From an uncultured Thermodesulfobacteriota bacterium (GTDB lineage Bacteria; Desulfobacterota; DSWW01): DNA of 46,365 nucleotides. The stretch is from NCBI GenBank assembly GCA_964439795.1, contig CAYTRL010000001.1, forward strand, positions 1-46,365, read 5' to 3'. Below the pieces are notes generated by a model. That model had not been told where the DNA came from. It was given only the letters and a program-made list of their open reading frames with translations, and did no database searches. The stretch's first letter is position 1. Every line of letters begins with the position of its first letter. A program made the translations under genes and the position numbers. This document shows positions 330 through 43,840 of this stretch, piece after piece.

Positions 330-740
330 CAGATCGGGCAGGGCCCCACCCTGCGGGGGCACATCCGGTCGTCATCCCCGTCCCCGCTTTCGTGGGGACA
401 AGCTCCAACGCGGATCCGGGGGCTGTCGGGCGGAGGGACAAACAGCCTCCTCCTTCCCCCTGCCCCTGGATTCCGGGTCATGCCCGGAATGTCGGAAAAG
501 TACAATGGGCTTGTCATCCCGGACTTGATCCGGGATCCACAGTTCAGAAGCACTTCTGGATGCCGGCCGGAGCTTGCCCCAGACTCCGATCCGGGGCCGG
601 CATAACAGAAAAAGACGTTTATCGACACCCGGAAAGTGGGAATCCAGGGGAGGCAGGGCAGGGTGCCGAAGAGCCTCCTCCTCGCCCCTGCCCCTGGATT
701 CTCCGGGTCATGCCCGGAATGACGGGTATGTACGCCTCCT
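330..740. repeat. Cluster of short palindromic REP-like intergenic repeats downstream of the HMGR-fusion gene
   Basis: Two ~52-bp direct copies (444-495 and 672-725: agcctcctcct.cccctgcccctggatt(c)ccgggtcatgcccggaatg.cgg), each containing the hairpin attccggg-N5-cccggaat. Hairpin gtcccc-N8-ggggac at about 379-398. The unit gtcatcccggacttgatccgggatcc... (512-575) recurs at 6848-6917. No convincing ORF in this region. Confidence 0.7.
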
Positions 741-3801: not shown

Positions 3802-4839
3802 ATGAACCAGACCGAGCAGCGAAAAATGGAGCACATCCGGATCTGCCTCGAAAAGAAGGTGGACACCGGAGATCCCCTCTTCGATGAGGTCACTCTGGTC
3901 CATCAGACACTCAACGATCTGGACCTCGAGGCTGTGGATTGCTCGCAGACCTTTCTGGGAAAACGGCTGGATTTTCCCTTGCTTATCGCTGGGATGACCG
4001 GGGGCTGCCGGGAAGCCAGAGAGATCAACCTGGCCCTGGCCGGGGCCGCGGAACGGAAGGGGGTGGCCTTCGGGGTGGGTTCCCAGCGTGCCATGATCGA
4101 AAACCCGGACCTCACCGATACCTTTGCCGTGCGGGAGGCGGCGCCGACGACCCCCCTTCTGGGGAACCTCGGGATTACGGCCCTGAGAAAATACCCGCTT
4201 TCCCGGGTTCACCAGGCCGTAGAGAGTATCGGAGCGGATGCCCTGTGCGTGCATATCAACCCTGCCCAGGAACTGTTTCAGCATGAGGGGGACCTGGATT
4301 TTTCCGGCTGCCCGGAGGCGCTCCGAAGGCTCTGTGAGGACGCCGGGTACCCGGTGATCGCCAAGGAGGTGGGAACCGGTACCCGCCGGGAAAGCGCCCT
4401 GCTTCCGGAACAGTGGGGGGGGCTGGCCATCGACCTGGGGGGCCTGGGGGGGACCAGCTGGGTGCTCGTGGACAGCATCCGTTCCGGAATGGATTCAAGC
4501 CGGTTCCGTGTCTGGGGAATCCCCACCGCGGCCTCCATCCTGGAGGCCGGGGTCGCGGGCGTTCCGCTGATTGCCACGGGCGGCGTACGCAACGGCCTGC
4601 ACATGGCCAAGGCCGTTCTGCTCGGTGCGGATCTTTGCGGAATCGCCCTGCCGTTCATCCGGATCCTGGACCAGAAGGGGGTGGAGGGGGTGGATGGATA
4701 CATCGATACCCTGAAGCGTGAGTTCCGCTATGCCCTCTACTTGACGGGCTCGGTGAACGTGGCGGATTTCCGCCGGAAGAAGCCGGTGCTGGGCGCACGC
4801 ATTCTGGAATGGGTCCGGCAGCGCGAGCTTGCTCTCTAA
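3802..4839 (+). CDS. fni: Type 2 isopentenyl-diphosphate delta-isomerase (FMN-dependent IDI-2)
   Basis: Start MNQTEQRKMEHIRI at ATG 3802 with GGAGA 6-7 nt upstream. Motifs: LLIAGMTGG, GVGSQR, VHINPAQEL, PVIAKEVGTG, GGLGGTSW, IATGGVRNGLHMAKAVLLGA. 345 aa, typical for fni. Confidence 0.9.
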   Translation: MNQTEQRKMEHIRICLEKKVDTGDPLFDEVTLVHQTLNDLDLEAVDCSQTFLGKRLDFPLLIAGMTGGCREAREINLALAGAAERKGVAFGVGSQRAMIENPDLTDTFAVREAAPTTPLLGNLGITALRKYPLSRVHQAVESIGADALCVHINPAQELFQHEGDLDFSGCPEALRRLCEDAGYPVIAKEVGTGTRRESALLPEQWGGLAIDLGGLGGTSWVLVDSIRSGMDSSRFRVWGIPTAASILEAGVAGVPLIATGGVRNGLHMAKAVLLGADLCGIALPFIRILDQKGVEGVDGYIDTLKREFRYALYLTGSVNVADFRRKKPVLGARILEWVRQRELAL

Positions 4840-6144: not shown

Positions 6145-6813
6145 TTGGCGTGCCTTTCCTTTATGCAGGTAGTGGTCCTGGTGGCGGCGGTCATTGCCTC
6201 GGTTTTTTCCATTTACACACGATACCGGAACGAACCGCTTTACACCCTTGTCAAACCGATCCCCATGTTCCTGATCATCTCCCTCTTCTTCATGAACCTG
6301 GTGTCCATATCACCCACCTCCACCTTTCCCTACCTGATCTTCCTGGGACTGATCGCCGGGGTGGGCGGGGATATCCTGCTCCTGTCTCCCAAGCGGTTCC
6401 TCGCCGGCCTCATCGCCTTCCTCCTGGGCCACATCCTCTACATCACGGGGTTCGCAACCGTGGCGATCTCCCTGCCGCCGGTCCTGATCCTGGCCCCCTT
6501 TGCCGTCACCCTCACTTTCGGCGTCATTCTGCTGGGGAAGATGGAGGAATCGGCGAGAAAGAAATACCGGATCCCCCTGCTCGTCTACATGGTCGCCATC
6601 ACGTTGATGTTCATCACGGCCCTGAACTTCGACCGGAACACGGGGGCGGAATTCCCCTTCTTCACACTGGGCTCCCTGCTTTTCTGCATATCCGACGGTG
6701 TGCTGGCCTGGAACCGGTTTTACCGGCCCTTCCGGGCGGCACAGGCCATCATCCTGACGACCTACTACTCCGCACAGATCCTGATCGGTTTCAGGGCCAT
6801 GTGCTTCCTCTAA
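6145..6813 (+). CDS. YhhN-family integral membrane protein (lysoplasmalogenase-like), paralog 1
   Basis: 222 aa, all hydrophobic helices. TTG start at 6145 with GGGAGA 8 nt upstream (alternative ATG at 6163). Conserved YhhN-like C-terminus FCISDGVLAWNRF...YYSAQILI. Same length and architecture as the ORF at 34601-35269. Confidence 0.75.
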   Translation: MACLSFMQVVVLVAAVIASVFSIYTRYRNEPLYTLVKPIPMFLIISLFFMNLVSISPTSTFPYLIFLGLIAGVGGDILLLSPKRFLAGLIAFLLGHILYITGFATVAISLPPVLILAPFAVTLTFGVILLGKMEESARKKYRIPLLVYMVAITLMFITALNFDRNTGAEFPFFTLGSLLFCISDGVLAWNRFYRPFRAAQAIILTTYYSAQILIGFRAMCFL

Positions 6814-6847
6814 CCGGCCGTTGAAAAAGTGGGATCCTGTGTTTTCC

Positions 6848-6917
6848 GTCATTCCGGACTTGATCCGGAATCCAGCATTTTCAAGCACCGCTGGATCCCG
6901 GCCTTCACCGGGATGAC
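6848..6917. repeat. REP-like palindromic repeat, same family as 512-575
   Basis: gtcattccggacttgatccggaatcc...ctggatcccggccttcaccgggatgac, compared with gtcatcccggacttgatccgggatcc...ctggatgccggcc at 512-575. Internal hairpin attccgga-N6-tccggaat. Confidence 0.7.
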
Positions 6918-7001
6918 TGCAAATTGGACTTTTTCAACTCCCTTGAAAAAGCGATTGGCAATATAATAGGTAGTTTTTTCATAGGATCAGACTGCCAAGC
7001 G

Positions 7002-9447: not shown

Positions 9448-9888
9448 ATGCAGATCCTTTCCGCCACGGAAGGCGCGATCCGCACGGTTCTGTACCTGGC
9501 CCTTGAGGGGGACCAGCGAACGATCTCCAGCCAGGAGATCTGCCGCACCCAGGAAATCACCCCCGCGTTTCTCATCAAAGTCACCCGGCCGCTGGTGCGC
9601 AAGGGGATCCTCTGCTCCACCCGGGGGGTTGGCGGAGGGTTCGCCCTGGCGAGACCCCCGGATCATATCACCCTGCTGGAAATCGTTGAGACAATACAGG
9701 GCCCGCTGGTGTTCAACGACTGCCTTCAGAGTCCGGGGACCTGCGACCGGGACATGAACTGCCCGGTCCATCCCGTTTGGAAGCAGATCCGCAGAAACAC
9801 GGAGAACATCCTGGCTGGATGGTCCCTGACCGACTTGGTCAAGGTCGCCCGCGACAGGGGCGTCCCCTGGGAAAGCATCCACCTGTAG
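9448..9888 (+). CDS. Rrf2-family transcriptional regulator (probable Fe-S binding)
   Basis: MQILSATEGAIRTVLYLAL...ISSQEICRTQEITPAFLIKVTRPLVRKGIL.STRGVGGGFALARPP (wHTH). Three-Cys cluster C-x7-C-x5-C (CLQSPGTCDRDMNC). Confidence 0.85.
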   Translation: MQILSATEGAIRTVLYLALEGDQRTISSQEICRTQEITPAFLIKVTRPLVRKGILCSTRGVGGGFALARPPDHITLLEIVETIQGPLVFNDCLQSPGTCDRDMNCPVHPVWKQIRRNTENILAGWSLTDLVKVARDRGVPWESIHL

Positions 9889-9911
9889 GGAGATCAATAG
9901 GAATCCATAAG

Positions 9912-10427
9912 ATGAAGGGCTACGTACAGGTCTACACGGGAGACGGAAAGGGCAAGACCACAGCGGCACTGGGGCTGGCCATCCGGGCGGCCGGGGCCGG
10001 GCTGCGGGTTTACATCGCCCAGTTCGTGAAAGGGATGAGGTACAGCGAGCTGGAGACCCTCGAGCGCCTCCGGGACCGGATCACGATCCGGCAGTACGGC
10101 AGAACCTGTTTTATCCGGAAAGAACCCGAACGGGAAGACGTGCTGGCGGCACGGAACGGCCTTCAGGAGGCCCGTGAGATCCTCCGCGCCGGAGCCCATC
10201 AACTGGTCATCCTGGACGAGGCCAACATCGCCGTTCACTTCAACCTGTTCTCGGCCGATGAACTGGCGGAGCTGATCTCCGAGAAACCGGAAAACGTTGA
10301 GCTGGTAATCACAGGCAGAAACGCCCACCCGAAAATCCTGGAAGCCGCGGATCTCGTTACCGAAATGAGGGAGGTAAAGCATTACTACCATGAAGGGGTT
10401 GAGGCCCGCCCGGGCATCGAGTCCTAG
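9912..10427 (+). CDS. cobO: Cob(I)yrinic acid a,c-diamide (cob(I)alamin) adenosyltransferase, CobO/BtuR type
   Basis: MKGYVQVYTGDGKGKTTAALGLAIRAAGAG (P-loop), ILDE, VITGRNA, TEMREVKHYY. 171 aa. Lies 23 nt after the Rrf2 gene. Confidence 0.85.
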   Translation: MKGYVQVYTGDGKGKTTAALGLAIRAAGAGLRVYIAQFVKGMRYSELETLERLRDRITIRQYGRTCFIRKEPEREDVLAARNGLQEAREILRAGAHQLVILDEANIAVHFNLFSADELAELISEKPENVELVITGRNAHPKILEAADLVTEMREVKHYYHEGVEARPGIES

Positions 10428-10452
10428 TCCGGCGGGCGAGAAGCACCCGTCT

Positions 10453-10690
10453 GCGACGTTGGGCTCGGTCCGTGTCGCTACGATGACCTTCAAGGTCTAT
10501 CTCGCGACCCGGCCCTTCACCCGCCTTGCATACGAGCACTTCTTGCCCGCCGGAACAGAATAGAAAACCCTTACTATTTCCTTCCTTTTGGAAACTTCAG
10601 AACCGAAACATTGAGTTCCACGGGTGAGGGGGTAAGCCAGGCGGCCGCTGGGGAGTTCCCGGAGGACGCAGGGGCCGGTTCAGGTCTTTT
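10453..10690. repeat. Composite ~230-bp intergenic repeat, copy A
   Basis: Shares two blocks with 43590-43840: caa(a)ggtct.tctcgcgacccgg.ccttcacccgccttgcat...gcacttcttg.ccgccggaa, then about 70 nt later agccaggcggccgctggggagtt(t)cccg.aggacgc. Begins 26 nt after the cobO stop. Confidence 0.75.
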
Positions 10691-10946
10691 GAAGGCCCCA
10701 AGGACGAGGGAAGCTCCCCCGGACGCCCCCATCTGCTGCGTTCCCCCTTGCCGCGTCGCTGCGGCGACCTACGGTCGCTCCAACGTACGAAAAGTACGCC
10801 TCCGCTCCTCGGCTGCGGGGCGCCTTGCATATGGACCTTTCTCGAAAGCCGAAGCGAAAGGGTGGGGGAAATAAGGAACACGGGTGGCACCGATCTCGTT
10901 ATAGAAACCGGGTTCTTGCAGGAAAGGAATCTGATCTGGGAAGAAG

Positions 10947-11148
10947 CGGCGTTGGGCTCGTTCCGTATCGCTGCGACGACCTCAAAGGTCTGTCTCGCGA
11001 TCCGGCCCTTCACCCGCCTTGCATCCCCGCGATTTCTGCATGCCTACAACAGGCAAGCGTTCCGTCAAGTAGTTTAAGAAATCGCGTTCTTTACAGGCAC
11101 TTCTTGCCCGCTGGAATCGAATCATGAACCCTGTATTCTCAACAACCT
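10947..11148. repeat. Composite intergenic repeat, copy B (first block only, with a ~60-nt insertion)
   Basis: gcgttgggctcgttccgtatcgctgcgacgacctcaaaggtctgtctcgcgatccggcccttcacccgccttgcat ... ggcacttcttgcccgctggaatcgaatc. Ends at the stop codon of the convergent VWA gene. Confidence 0.7.
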
Positions 11149-11149
11149 G

Positions 11150-12532
11150 TCAGAGGGTGAGTTCGTTCACGAACTCGATCAGCTGCTTCAGGTTGCGGCA
11201 CTCACGTACCTGGTCGCAGTTCCGGCTGTAGCGGTGCATCATGGAATCACCGAACCTCCAGAAACCGCGGCTCTCCGGGTTGAGCCAGATGACGCGCCTC
11301 GCGCGTCTCCGGATGCGGGACAGGTATTTCTCCCCCGGAAAGAAAAAGTTGTTTCTTCCGTCCCCGATGACGATCACCGTGGTCTTCCGGTTCACGGCAT
11401 CCATCTGGTCCTCGCAGAACTGCTCGAACACGCTTCCGTAGTCTGTGTACCGGTTGTAGGCGATGCCGGCGTCGTTCAGGGCGGTCTCGATAGCCTCGTT
11501 CACCGGGCGGCGTTCGAAGCACTCCGTCACCTCTCCCAGTTCATCCACGAAAACGAAGCTCCGCACCTTGTCGAACTGGTCCTGAAGCGAGTAGAGCAGG
11601 TGGAGCATGAACCGGGATGCGTTCCACACGGAGCTGGACACGTCGCAGAGAGCCACGATCCGGGGCCGGGTTTTCTTTCGCTTCCGAAAAACCACCTCCA
11701 GGGGAACGCCCCCGTACCGGAGGCTTTTTCGAAGCGTGTGCTTGAGGCTGAACCGGCCCTTGCGGTTGCGGCGCTGCCGCAGAGCGGCCTCATCCCGGAT
11801 CTTCTTGGCCAGTTCCTGTACGGCGTGCTGCATCGACTTGATTTCCCAGCTGTTCAAGGCCCCGAACGATTTGTCCATGAGTGCCTGGTGGGGTTCCTCT
11901 TTTTTTTGCCTGGGGAGCTGAGCCCGCGCCTGACGGTCCACGTAATCGCGGATCACTTCCTCGAACCGCTGGATCCTTTCCGACAGCTCCTGTTCCAGGA
12001 ATGTACGCGTAGCTGCCGGGACTCCCTGCCGGGCCAGGGCCTCCATCAGGTTCGACAGTTCCTGCTCCCCGTTTTCCATGCCCATCGCTTTCCGGATTTT
12101 TTGCACGTAGTGGGAGGTCTGCAGCGGATACCGGATGTCCTGGATCCCCGCCCGGTTGCCTGCCTCCATCAGGTCGGCCGCCAGCACGGCCAGCCCCTCC
12201 AGGGCCAGTTTCCGCATCCAGGGGGAGAGCAGGCCGTTGGCCTGCTCCAGGATCTCCCGGAGGGAGTCCTCCATGCCGCTCTGTTCCAGTGCGGACGGCA
12301 GTTCTTCGTCGGGAATCTCCAGGGAGTGGAAGAAGAGGTCGAAGAGGTGTTCGAAGGTGGGCAGGTCCTCGGCCCGCTTGACGAGAGTGGTGCGCAGCAA
12401 GGCCCGGAAGAGGCCCCGCTCGCGGAGATCCACGTGTTCCATCCCGGTCAGGCTGTCCAGGGTCTCTTCCGGGGCGATCCGCATCCCGGAGCCGCGAAGG
12501 ATGTCGGCAAACTGGAGGATCTGCTCTTTCAT
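11150..12532 (-). CDS. VWA domain protein, CoxE-like partner of a MoxR ATPase
   Basis: N-terminus MKEQILQFADILRGSGMRIAPEETLDSL...LFRALLRTTLVKRAEDLPTFEHLFDLFF is typical of CoxE-type proteins. C-terminal VWA with MIDAS-like CDVSSS. Starts 3 nt after the moxR stop. Confidence 0.8.
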   Translation of the reverse strand: MKEQILQFADILRGSGMRIAPEETLDSLTGMEHVDLRERGLFRALLRTTLVKRAEDLPTFEHLFDLFFHSLEIPDEELPSALEQSGMEDSLREILEQANGLLSPWMRKLALEGLAVLAADLMEAGNRAGIQDIRYPLQTSHYVQKIRKAMGMENGEQELSNLMEALARQGVPAATRTFLEQELSERIQRFEEVIRDYVDRQARAQLPRQKKEEPHQALMDKSFGALNSWEIKSMQHAVQELAKKIRDEAALRQRRNRKGRFSLKHTLRKSLRYGGVPLEVVFRKRKKTRPRIVALCDVSSSVWNASRFMLHLLYSLQDQFDKVRSFVFVDELGEVTECFERRPVNEAIETALNDAGIAYNRYTDYGSVFEQFCEDQMDAVNRKTTVIVIGDGRNNFFFPGEKYLSRIRRRARRVIWLNPESRGFWRFGDSMMHRYSRNCDQVRECRNLKQLIEFVNELTL

Positions 12533-30417: not shown

Positions 30418-30510
30418 GGGGTCAGGTCTTCATTCTACATTTTTCGTCTATCCGAACAAGTTCTCCAGCGCGGCACCCACGAGAAAAATGTAGAATGAAG
30501 ACCTGACCCC
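30418..30510 (-). repeat. 93-nt hairpin element, copy 1 (perfect 28-bp AT-rich stem, 37-nt loop)
   Basis: ggggtcaggtcttcattctacatttttc (30418-30445) is the exact reverse complement of gaaaaatgtagaatgaagacctgacccc (30483-30510). The element's reverse complement is about 90% identical to 39506-39598. It sits 6 nt downstream of the methyltransferase stop codon. Confidence 0.85.
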
Positions 30511-39505: not shown

Positions 39506-39598
39506 GGGGCCAGGTCTTCATTTTACATTTTTCTCGTAGATGCCGTGCCGGACAACTCGTTCGGATAGACGAAAAATGTAAAATGAAGACCTGACCCC
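39506..39598 (+). repeat. 93-nt hairpin element, copy 2 (27/28-bp stem)
   Basis: ggggccaggtcttcattttacatttttc ... gaaaaatgtaaaatgaagacctgacccc. Starts 5 nt after the uvrA TAG. The loop is 31/37 identical to the reverse complement of the copy-1 loop. Confidence 0.85.
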
Positions 39599-42766: not shown

Positions 42767-43588
42767 ATGTCAATGATTCATCCCACGGCAATCGTGGACC
42801 CCACCGCGAAGATCGCGGACGGGGTGGAAATCGGGGCCTATGCCGTGATCGAGGGGAACGCGGAAATCGGGCCCGGAACGGTCATCCGTCCTCACGCCAT
42901 GATCCGGCAGTTCACGACCATGGGGTCCGGCAACTTCGTGGATTCTTTTGCCGTCCTGGGCGGGAATCCCCAGGACCTGAAATTCGAACCGGAACAGCTG
43001 ACCTGCCTTCGGATCGGAAACGACAATGTGTTCCGCGAGGGGGTGACCATCTCCCGGGGCACGGGGACCGGGAGCGAGACCGTGGTGGGCAACCAAACCT
43101 ACTGGATGGCCAACGCCCACGCCGGCCACAACTGTGAAATCCAGGACCGGGTGATCGTGGTCAACGGGTCTCTGCTGGCCGGTCACTGCACCGTCGGGCC
43201 CGATGCCGTCCTGCCCGCGAACGGATCCGTTCACCAGTTCTGCTGGGTGGGGGAGGGAGCCTTTTTTCAGGGGGGCGCTCAGGTCAGCATGCACGTTCCG
43301 CCCTACGTGCTCTGTGCCCGGGACAACTGCGTGATGGGCCTGAACTCCGTGGGCATGCGCAGAGCCGAGGGGGTCACCCCCGGGGAGCGGAAACAGATAC
43401 GGGAGGCGTTCCGGATTACCTACCAGTCCGGCCTGACCCTGCAGGAGGCGCTGGCAAGGATGGAGGGCCTCGAGGACTGGACCGGGATCGCCGTGAAGTT
43501 CCGCGATTTCATCCGAAAGATTCTCACCGCGTCGCCCCCCCACAACCGGGGGTTGTGTCCGGCGCGTAAAGACCGCGTCCCCCACTGA
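42767..43588 (+). CDS. lpxA: Acyl-ACP--UDP-N-acetylglucosamine O-acyltransferase
   Basis: MIHPTAIVDPTAKIADGVEIGAYAVIEG hexapeptide repeats, ANAHAGHNCEI, GSVHQFCWVG, NSVGMRRAG-type C-terminal helical domain. Confidence 0.9.
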   Translation: MSMIHPTAIVDPTAKIADGVEIGAYAVIEGNAEIGPGTVIRPHAMIRQFTTMGSGNFVDSFAVLGGNPQDLKFEPEQLTCLRIGNDNVFREGVTISRGTGTGSETVVGNQTYWMANAHAGHNCEIQDRVIVVNGSLLAGHCTVGPDAVLPANGSVHQFCWVGEGAFFQGGAQVSMHVPPYVLCARDNCVMGLNSVGMRRAEGVTPGERKQIREAFRITYQSGLTLQEALARMEGLEDWTGIAVKFRDFIRKILTASPPHNRGLCPARKDRVPH

Positions 43589-43589
43589 T

Positions 43590-43840
43590 TCGGCTTCCGA
43601 TACACGCCCTCAAAGGTCTGTCTCGCGACCCGGACCTTCACCCGCCTTGCATCCTTCCTCCCCCTTGCATACGTGCACTTCTTGTCCGCCGGAATCGAAT
43701 CGAGAAAATCCGATACATTCCCGCAATCCCCATAAGGTGAATACAGGAACTGAACAATAGAGGCTCTTGAGGGAAGCGGGGAAAAGCCAGGCGGCCGCTG
43801 GGGAGTTTCCCGTAGGACGCGTTCCGTTTACAGGTCCGGT
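43590..43840. repeat. Composite ~230-bp intergenic repeat, copy C
   Basis: ctcaaaggtctgtctcgcgacccggaccttcacccgccttgcat...gcacttcttgtccgccggaatcgaatc, then agccaggcggccgctggggagtttcccgtaggacgc. Begins right after the lpxA stop, and its distal end overlaps the 3' end of the convergent lipoprotein gene. Confidence 0.75.

Follow-up and report, generated by a model that had tools for sequence, protein, structure and literature searches.

Short hairpin repeats in bacterial genomes

Short hairpin repeats are usually dismissed as lineage-specific junk. The closest described systems share different traits with the family of CATCTG-box hairpins analysed here. ERIC/IRU elements (ERIC ~127 bp, Enterobacteria) are, like the members of this family, imperfect hairpins of 125-127 nt that lie in transcribed intergenic DNA after genes and have no known transposase. 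Both are conserved over genera or families, with a copy number that is very uneven per genome. ERIC elements alter the stability of flanking mRNA (PMC2229807). The likeness rests on size, shape and genomic habit; a sequence relationship is not expected. Unlike ERIC, which is found in one or two families, the present family spans many phyla. Furthermore, its arms vary, its two internal boxes are invariant, and half of the copies adjoin a stop codon with a single polarity.

REP/BIME/REPIN elements with their RAYTs and TIR elements with TIRYTs are palindromic extragenic repeats that form mosaics (PMC3733652, PMC2817692), as do the repeats of this study. REPs comprise 20-40 nt with a GTAG or CGTC tag, and the RAYT gene is flanked by its own REPs (PMC3733652, PMC2817692). 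REP termini often provide stop codons to flanking ORFs (PMC3733652). In addition, REPs are landing sites for site-specific IS elements (PMC1525189), and IS621 targets them via a bridge RNA with a CT core (PMC11208160). In contrast to REPs, the elements described here have ~125 nt, carry no tag and are not associated with a Y1 gene.

Correia/NEMIS, RUP and other MITEs resemble the present family in their size (100-160 bp), the lack of genes and the presence of terminal inverted repeats (PMC2229807, PMC3184786). Both are also AT-poor elements with TA-containing targets; a short target duplication and co-transcription, as in these MITEs, are presumed for the family studied here (PMC2229807, PMC3184786). 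In those MITEs, the termini are conserved and correspond to a parent IS present in the same genomes, whereas the termini of the present family are variable and a parent IS was not found in any lineage sampled.

A fourth group comprises the 24 "predicted short RNA elements" Gmet_R1001-R1024 of Geobacter metallireducens published in 2009 (PMC2700814, Additional file 4). Like the present family, they are intergenic and multicopy, with ~113 nt each. Their central palindrome GRCGTAGCGCTGCTACGCC can be written as GRCGTAGC-GCT-GCTACGCC and is followed by TCCGC. CCATCT is located toward the 5' side and ATCTGG toward the 3' side, flanked by complementary A/T-rich arms. The boxes differ between both families (CCATCTCGCCGC vs. 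CCATCTGCGGCG). Judged by eye, the Gmet family is probably a diverged relative. To our knowledge, it has never been characterised, and it was interpreted as regulatory RNA.

Modules of the cobO-VWA intergenic region

The window, i.e. the whole stretch of 46,365 nt that was analysed, is contig C1 of a 6.17-Mb MAG (729 contigs, 78% complete, 61% GC) of an uncultured Thermodesulfobacteriota bacterium. In this window, cobO (ORF 9777-10427, + strand; Pfam CobA_CobO_BtuR, E = 4e-64) and a Pfam-confirmed VWA_CoxE gene (11150-12532, - strand) are convergent and separated by 722 bp. The original prediction had noticed here an intergenic repeat of ~230 bp with two blocks and no protein-like ORF. Indeed, the gap contains no credible ORF. 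It is an accumulation of at least four dispersed repeat families, whose modules were resolved by iterated nhmmer searches over the whole genome. In addition, a covariance model designated R1 was built from an alignment of 34 copies from other phyla (A2) and includes no sequence of this genome. Boundaries placed at stem ends are accurate to within 1-4 nt. The following features were found:

10425..10427, + strand: stop codon TAG of cobO, directly adjoined by the repeat
10428..10554, + strand: M1 (block 1 of the prediction), 127-nt imperfect palindrome; R1 match 10424-10559
10555..10633, no strand assigned: linker ("spacer") between M1 and M2; detected by nhmmer at a single place in the genome
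10634..10728, + strand: M2 (block 2 of the prediction), separate 95-nt hairpin repeat with 24 genome copies
10728..10851, + strand: X2-type member of the hairpin family; R1 match 10706-10858, nhmmer match 10729-10859
10932..11115, + strand: copy B, M1-type element; R1 match 10946-11022 (E = 4.7e-6) and sequence reading
11134..11149, - strand: X-type terminus CAGGTTGTTGAGAATA, read from the sequence; adjoins the TGA stop of the VWA gene (11150-11152)
43589..43694, + strand: first part of copy C; from sequence, alignment and nhmmer match 43604-43699
43695..43820, + strand: second part of copy C; from sequence, alignment and repeat family D17

The repetition of both blocks within the window was confirmed and lies far above chance, with boundaries that had to be corrected. 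A BLASTN search with 10440-10720 identified copy B (10946-11024, E = 2.6e-22) as well as copy C (43613-43820, E = 2.4e-16). As predicted, all three copies have + orientation and adjoin 3' ends of genes (cobO and lpxA are Pfam-confirmed). The repeat does follow the cobO stop codon, and its true start is 10428, the base after TAG, instead of 10453. The C-terminus encoded by cobO reads GIES* here, GIEN* in the same-genus sister species G001 (~70-80% protein identity) and GIET* in the relative G002; the DNA downstream of the gene is unrelated in both relatives. The cobO stop codon looks native.

The X copy at 10728-10851 has M2 in place of its left arm and carries an additional internal hairpin, GCGTCGCTGCGGCGACCTACGGTCGC. 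R1 recognises it with 40.8 bits (E = 2e-10), its left-arm positions being unpaired. Its boxes read CCATCTGCTGCGTT and GCCTTGCATATGG. The same M2-X junction is present on contig C151. In copy B, the left arm is partly deleted, and M3 (~11025-11093), another repeat, sits within the element and separates box 2 from the right arm. The terminus in front of the VWA gene can be compared with the consensus X terminus CAGGCCGTTGAAAAAG. Copy C is located behind lpxA (Pfam Hexapep and Acetyltransf_11). It begins directly after the TGA of lpxA (43586-43588) with an X2-type left arm, TTCGGCTTCCGATACACGCCC, followed by an internal deletion and an M1-type right half with a duplicated box 2. R1 misses this first part at E <= 1 because the copy is truncated. 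The second part consists of the linker and the left arm of M2 (43784-43820) and ends 7 nt before the stop codon of the convergent gene (43828-43830). This means, copy C shares both blocks, as had been predicted, but of block 2 it has the left arm only.

Block 1 is a member of a cross-phylum hairpin family

The statement that the repeat lacks terminal inverted repeats proved wrong: The ends of block 1, TCCGGCGGGCGAGAAGCAC and GCACTTCTTGCCCGCCGGA, are inverted repeats and pair fully. M1 has an apical stem GACCTT-CAA-GGTC. Ten short M1 copies of ~125 nt each were aligned and yielded 44 predicted pairs, 95% of them canonical, a value that none of 500 shuffles attained. Copy A has its own double compensatory change, GG in the left and CC in the right arm.

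In the cross-phylum family, two boxes, CCATCTGCKGCGTT (box 1) and GCCTTGCATCTGG (box 2), are near-invariant. In the predicted fold, they are located opposite each other as a CATCTG/CATCTG internal loop. A CGTAC-loop-GTACG hairpin is conserved at the apex. The terminal arms vary, with 67 distinct 12-nt termini among 82 copies, yet they are complementary. Copy A has both complementary terminal arms of ~19 nt and an apical stem-loop. At the positions homologous to box 1 and box 2, it carries the variants CCGTCTGCGACGTT and GCCTTGCATACGA. R1 matches copy A in full length (10424-10559, model positions 1-135) with 54.4 bits and E = 1.6e-14. M1 is best classed as a genus-level variant of the cross-phylum CATCTG-box hairpin family.

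When a canonical X copy was used as BLASTN query, six genomes belonging to this bacterial family yielded 7-47 copies, and a different family within the phylum gave 15. At least 119 stretches of a genome contig collection contain the pattern CATCTGCKGCGTT-N(55-85)-GCCTTGCATCTGG. Among the matches listed are the phyla NC10/Methylomirabilota, Thermodesulfobacteriota, Nitrospirota, Acidobacteriota, Myxococcota, Gemmatimonadota, Planctomycetota and Bacillota. The lineages named include Geobacter, Geothermobacter, Desulfuromonadaceae, Syntrophales, Desulfobacter, Sulfotelmatobacter and Rokubacteria as well as Selenomonadales, Peptococcaceae, Binatia, Gallionella and Hyphomicrobiales. Canonical members are seen in Geobacter and Desulfuromonadaceae MAGs among these matches. 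A pattern combining the X terminus with box 1 had no match in the same collection; it was too specific. Of 81 genomes from 69 genera that were searched in the phylum of the window, 30 genomes from 28 genera have R1 matches. The copy number per genome lies between 0 and more than 40, and genomes of 1.8-2.5 Mb are included. The prediction had implied a local family. By pattern and model searches, the block 1 family is instead widespread over many phyla.

Alignment A2 allows the fold to be assessed independently of the genome under study. RNAalifold predicts 27 pairs, 19 of which show compensatory changes. In 91.5% of the cells the bases are paired, compared to 75.8% in shuffled alignments and 27-46% when the partners were slid. 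Two-sided changes amount to 147 cells vs. 50 in shuffles. On every measure, none of 500 shuffles reached the observed value. Covariation is seen in the internal helices 4 and 5 as well as at the termini.

The family is uncatalogued in Rfam. A cmscan with Rfam 15 found nothing at gathering score across the whole window, and at E <= 10 the region 10400-11200 gave two chance-level matches (E = 2.3 and 3.8). A known RNA family, which would have refuted the prediction, was rejected on these grounds. A literature search for the box strings returned only chance primer matches.

Other assignments for the stretch behind cobO were rejected, too. A σ54 or σ70 promoter was considered for the TTGCAT...GCAC region; on reading, the spacing is unsuitable, and a scan of 10300-11300 found neither σ70-like nor terminator-like sites. 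For an intrinsic terminator or an independent sRNA gene, this region lacks a GC-rich hairpin with U-run and a promoter consensus. An integron attC site does not fit the context of housekeeping genes without a cassette array, and the R'/R'' cores mismatch on reading.

Genomic distribution and preference for stop codons

A genome-wide nhmmer search detected 122 non-overlapping loci of the M1/X superfamily, in addition to 24 of M2 and 16 of M3. In the genome-wide BLASTN search, the stretch also matched C151:856-1140 with 80% identity over 295 nt (E = 5e-69). Copies are thus not confined to the window, and a local duplication was ruled out by both BLAST and nhmmer.

The copies follow unrelated housekeeping genes. 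Genes were called with a custom codon-usage caller that had been checked on the window. Among the 93 intergenic copies for which both flanking genes were called, 39 are located between convergent genes, compared to a share of 16% of convergent regions among all intergenic regions. Divergent regions are depleted and hold only 7 M1/X copies. In co-directional gaps the orientation is random: 21 copies point in the same and 26 in the opposite direction.

The elements comprise 113-165 nt and have the termini CAGGC, TCCGG or TTCGG. Their left boundary is sharp. In X copies, the information content rises from ~0 to 2 bits at CAGG, and only the three bases before CAGG are weakly constrained. Of 73 copies, 41 are immediately preceded by a TAA, TAG or TGA triplet. 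In 35 of these 41 cases the triplet closes an ORF of at least 100 codons vs. 12% for random stop triplets. The element is preferentially located directly behind a stop-like TRR or YTAR site, so that about half of the copies directly adjoin a real stop codon. This preference is polar, as the stop codon of a long ORF is adjoined by the left end in 18 of 37 X copies and by the right end in 4. Such a left-end polarity toward stop codons is unexpected for a symmetric cut-and-paste insertion.

X copies end on the right with the terminus once more in inverted form, and behind it the left flank often recurs (CTGA/CTGA twice, CTAG/CTAG, CTTAA, CCTAA). Matching flanks of 3-5 nt were found at several X copies, about half of those that could be scored; the remaining copies differ. 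These flank repeats may reflect a 4-bp YTAR duplication, a 2-bp TA duplication or a YTAR end carried by the element itself. At M1 copies including copy A, a flank duplication is not evident.

A comparison with the sister species G001 revealed M1-type copies at two sites (L008 and L002) that are empty in the present genome. One G001 copy follows a glycyl-radical-enzyme gene, and GATAAG of the element provides the last codons and the stop of this gene. The orthologue here (C24:10592-13261) is not followed by a copy. The other G001 copy lies between two thiolase genes. At the corresponding position on C140 (C140:2181), an unrelated spacer of 171 nt is found.

M2, M3 and the composite arrangement

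M2 is a hairpin with the conserved apex GGGGCCGGTTCAGGTCTTTTGAAGGCCCC and an outer stem that covaries; its alifold stem comprises 96% canonical pairs. It is not detected by R1, its core pattern has no match outside the lineage in the genome contig collection, and G002 is the only relative that shows M2-like copies. M2 is assigned to an unrelated hairpin repeat restricted to this lineage, a bacterial family. A role as 5'-UTR regulatory element was rejected, since 8 of 20 genome copies are located between convergent genes and the orientation is random. M3 was found at nearly all of its 16 genome loci at the same position in a family member, joined to the left part of the latter; two copies cut at contig starts cannot be judged in this count. 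Repeat copies often break contigs. One M2-like copy of G002 is located upstream of a gene.

The linker was considered as part of M2 and rejected, because solo M2 copies have a different upstream sequence. Its alignment with the corresponding stretch of C151, C297 and copy C is weak. This agrees with the similarity of the spacers that had been claimed, which is real, albeit weak (~50-60% identity in the alignment).

Repeat clusters in this genome mostly consist of a single element (115 of 133). The window cluster is with five modules the largest in the genome. The M1-linker-M2 arrangement is rare: It occurs at ~4 loci, among them C151, copy C and, in part, C297. Between these loci, the modules are ~90% identical and the linker ~50-60%. 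Hence, the ~230 bp do not constitute one element as had been proposed, but two repeat families plus linker that mostly occur apart. Since the modules are mostly solitary and their arrangement is found at few loci, the "230-bp composite" is a secondary mosaic and not the family unit. Several modules in recurrent intergenic arrangements, as seen here, are typical of the BIME/BOX type.

Search for a mobilizing enzyme

Paired family termini located 600-4000 bp apart do not enclose a transposase in this 78%-complete MAG. The genes that they enclose were considered as parent IS and rejected: They encode an ordinary permease, NadD-NadK, a glycosyltransferase and a protease. At none of 80 loci from other phyla does the distance between box 1 and box 2 exceed 200 nt; an autonomous parent is therefore not seen there. 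The single DDE_Tnp_1 gene of the genome has neither a terminal inverted repeat nor an adjacent family element. IS630-type (DDE_3) genes in four relatives have other ends and are not flanked by a family element.

This genome has a single Y1 gene (C10:24122-24448), and the arms on either side of it belong to another hairpin family, the one located at 30418-30510 and 39506-39598. R1 did not detect a family member within 1.5 kb of any of 18 transposase loci. These include 12 Y1 genes: 11 of ~30 matches in relatives and that of this genome. Furthermore, the presence of Y1 genes does not track the element. G011 has at least 15-24 copies without a Y1 gene. G007 and G008, both outside the R1 search, have Y1 genes and no BLASTN copies.

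Origin and possible function of the repeats

Taken together, the stretch behind cobO is probably a pile-up of non-coding hairpin repeats of the non-autonomous MITE/REP/ERIC kind that are mobile now or were so formerly. This reading builds on the multicopy dispersal, the sharp boundaries, the preference for stop sites, the differing sites in the sister species and the covarying hairpin. Among the interpretations offered by the original prediction, which is partly supported, the REP/BIME/MITE type fits best; a structured RNA retains a small chance. Like MITEs, the elements are small, non-coding and multicopy with terminal inverted repeats, and they show presence/absence polymorphism between G001 and this genome. 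A parent IS with the same termini was found neither in this 78%-complete MAG nor at the 80 loci from other phyla. Unlike in a classic MITE, conservation is lowest at the termini and highest in the interior boxes.

The following course of events can be envisaged. An enzyme encoded outside the element would act in trans and insert the copies. In this step, 2-4 bases of the YTAR target would be duplicated or regenerated, so that the upstream gene would retain its stop codon. The inserted copy would be co-transcribed as a 3'-UTR hairpin and tolerated. In this manner, repeats might have gathered where two genes converge and leave dead space between them. Further insertion and deletion events, together with recombination among copies, could have produced the M1-linker-M2-X mosaic, which might then have been copied as a block to about three other loci.

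How the copies are recognised and placed is a matter of speculation. We tentatively propose, as an idea with a modest chance of being correct, that the CATCTG-box hairpin is acted on by a structure-specific recombinase or nuclease of an unrecognised kind, which is shared across phyla and is not an adjacent Y1, IS630- or IS5-type enzyme. This enzyme would recognise the folded rod, including the invariant, mismatched CATCTG/CATCTG loop and the CGTAC apex, and would insert copies exactly at YTAR stop-codon sites with uniform polarity. The apex would be a landing pad for a site-specific IS with CT core. If true, this would be a stop-codon-homing mobile element of a mechanistically new type.

Alternatively, the hairpin family might primarily be a functional 3'-UTR RNA that is read in one orientation behind the stop codon and involved in processing, stabilisation or translation termination, its multiplicity being due to recruitment instead of selfish spread. 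We regard this as unlikely. It could explain why helices 4 and 5 covary strongly beyond the termini, why the loop boxes are invariant across phyla and why the polarity relative to the upstream gene is fixed in stop-adjoining copies. The annotation of the diverged Geobacter metallireducens relative as "predicted short RNA elements" (PMC2700814) points in the same direction. However, a perfect DNA palindrome yields the same covariation signal, and the random orientation in co-directional gaps (21 vs. 26) is at odds with an RNA function. So are the position of copies behind unrelated housekeeping genes, the patchy occurrence among genomes (family members in 30 of 81 genomes of the phylum, with copy numbers between 0 and more than 40) and the truncated, nested or interrupted copies that exist without apparent cost. 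A terminator-like tail and a match to an Rfam family are lacking as well.

Quite improbable is an assignment to REP/REPIN-like substrates of a single-strand HUH (Y1) transposase of the RAYT/TIRYT or IS200/IS605 type, which would recognise the folded hairpin with its mismatched CATCTG/CATCTG loop and insert it 3' of YTAR without true duplication. Such an enzyme would account for the insertion exactly 3' of a short motif, the strand polarity and the conserved mismatches of the imperfect hairpin. A right-end YTAR that is often unlike the left flank (TTAG vs. CTAG, CTAA vs. TTAA) is consistent with it, and GTAG REP termini are known to give TAG stops to flanking ORFs (PMC3733652). Yet, the sole Y1 gene of this genome lies between arms of another hairpin family, no R1 match lies within 1.5 kb of the 12 Y1 genes, and Y1 presence does not track the element. 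Moreover, the elements have ~125 nt and no GTAG or CGTC terminal tag, and the rare flank CTGA on both sides of two copies favours a real target duplication.

Very improbable are double-stranded DNA binding platforms for a host protein (nucleoid-associated, gyrase or regulator) in a BIME-like, structural mosaic: The modular, BIME-like architecture, the boxes as direct CATCTG repeats on both arms and the global-regulator sites proposed for several multicopy classes in Geobacter genome papers (PMC2700814) would fit, but a protein partner is not known, compensatory changes in the arms have no purpose in a duplex binding site, and the patchy cross-phylum distribution disfavours a host-specific protein.

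The pile-up of repeats explains the unusual gene-free interval of 722 bp as ordinary accretion. The same boxes and apical hairpin have been kept in NC10, Nitrospirota, Acidobacteriota, Deltaproteobacteria-type lineages, Myxococcota, Gemmatimonadota and Firmicutes. The family reaches dozens of copies even in 2-Mb genomes, adjoins real stop codons and is absent from Rfam. Its copies interrupt assemblies, look like sRNAs and provide genes with stop codons or C-terminal residues, and a named family model would tidy the annotation of numerous MAGs. As there are carriers in culture (Geothermobacter, Geobacter relatives), the family provides a tractable route to what moves REP/ERIC-like elements without a linked transposase.

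An insertion sequence within X copies

PF01548 is absent from the MAG. The interior of an IS that interrupts X copies was absent from the MAG and, in a pattern search, from 10 relatives, and it had no exact match in metagenome contigs. This IS splits the X copies at GTACGC-CT-CCTTCC; the apex stretch reads ACGTAC...GTACGCCTCC.

A candidate mobiliser and an insertion sequence

A candidate mobiliser is present for the 93-nt hairpin repeat family and none for the CATCTG-box family. The only gene of the MAG for a Y1 (RAYT/TIRYT-like) transposase is flanked on either side by GGGGTCAGGTCTTCATTCTACATTTT (C10:23500-24640). The 93-nt hairpin repeat, two copies of which are located in the window (30418-30510 and 39506-39598), has this 28-nt sequence as its arm. 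This bracketing by the arms makes the Y1 gene the candidate for mobilising the 93-nt family.

X-type copies, which belong to the CATCTG-box family, are interrupted by a multicopy insertion sequence. Insertion occurs at a single exact site in the conserved apex, GTACGC-CT-CCTTCC, and its junctions lie at contig ends of the MAG:

Left junctions: ends of C81, C160, C280, C455, C622 and C627
Right junctions: ends of C89, C151, C234, C306, C385 and C479

CT is found at both the left and the right junctions, and otherwise there is no duplication. One end of the insertion sequence reads TTGTATAATTCCCCTCAGTGGAAATTCATCTCCGATAAGTGCTAG... and the other ...TTGTTCAGAGGTGAACTGACTTGACACAAAACACAGTTG. This element, known from its junctions with its interior unassembled, looks like an IS110-type insertion sequence with a CT core, for which the repeat serves as landing pad. 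No PF01548 was found in the MAG.

Junctions and possible recombination between repeats

The 95-nt hairpin repeat M2 adjoins X2-type elements of the CATCTG-box family at two places, window 10728 and C151:847. At both, the end of M2 coincides exactly with the position at which the X2-type element would begin its left arm, had this arm been kept. ACGCCC is shared between the M2/X2-type junction and the lost left arm, which suggests that M2 replaced this arm by recombination at microhomology rather than being simply inserted side by side. Two M2-like hairpins bracket a gene for a 933-aa protein in the relative G002 (L111, G002:C17:92000-97800):

L111, about 985-1085: M2-like hairpin
L111, about 4580-4660: M2-like hairpin, inverted relative to the other

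One of them is located ~60 nt upstream of the start codon of this gene.

In three relatives (L114 in G002, L116 in G003 and L117 in G004), a direct repeat of the first 30-40 nt of the element, comprising the left arm and box 1 (the left internal conserved box), follows 3' of the full element. It lies within ~30-45 nt past the element, with unrelated DNA beyond. These partial repeats could be truncated tandem insertions or a recombination footprint via a shared core.

Shared termini and a donated C-terminus

Another repeat (window 6814-6944) begins one base past the TAA stop codon of the gene at 6145-6813. Its terminus, CCGGCCGTTGAAAAAG, is of the same type as that of the CATCTG-box family, while its interior differs (TGGGATCC...). 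It has GTCATTCCGGACTTGATCCGGAATCCAG in common with window 513-568. The window also contains:

392-750: repeat cluster

Several more families of the MAG carry a CCGGCCGTTGAAAAAG-type terminus, each combined with another interior, e.g. TCCAAGTTGTCG.

In the sister species G001, an M1-type copy is situated within the 3'-terminal part of a gene for a glycyl radical enzyme (L008, G001:C55, about 1480-1615). The last four codons and the stop codon of this gene are derived from the element (…SCEG-TAA, from TCCTGCGAAGGATAAG); the orthologue in the window MAG has a different tail.
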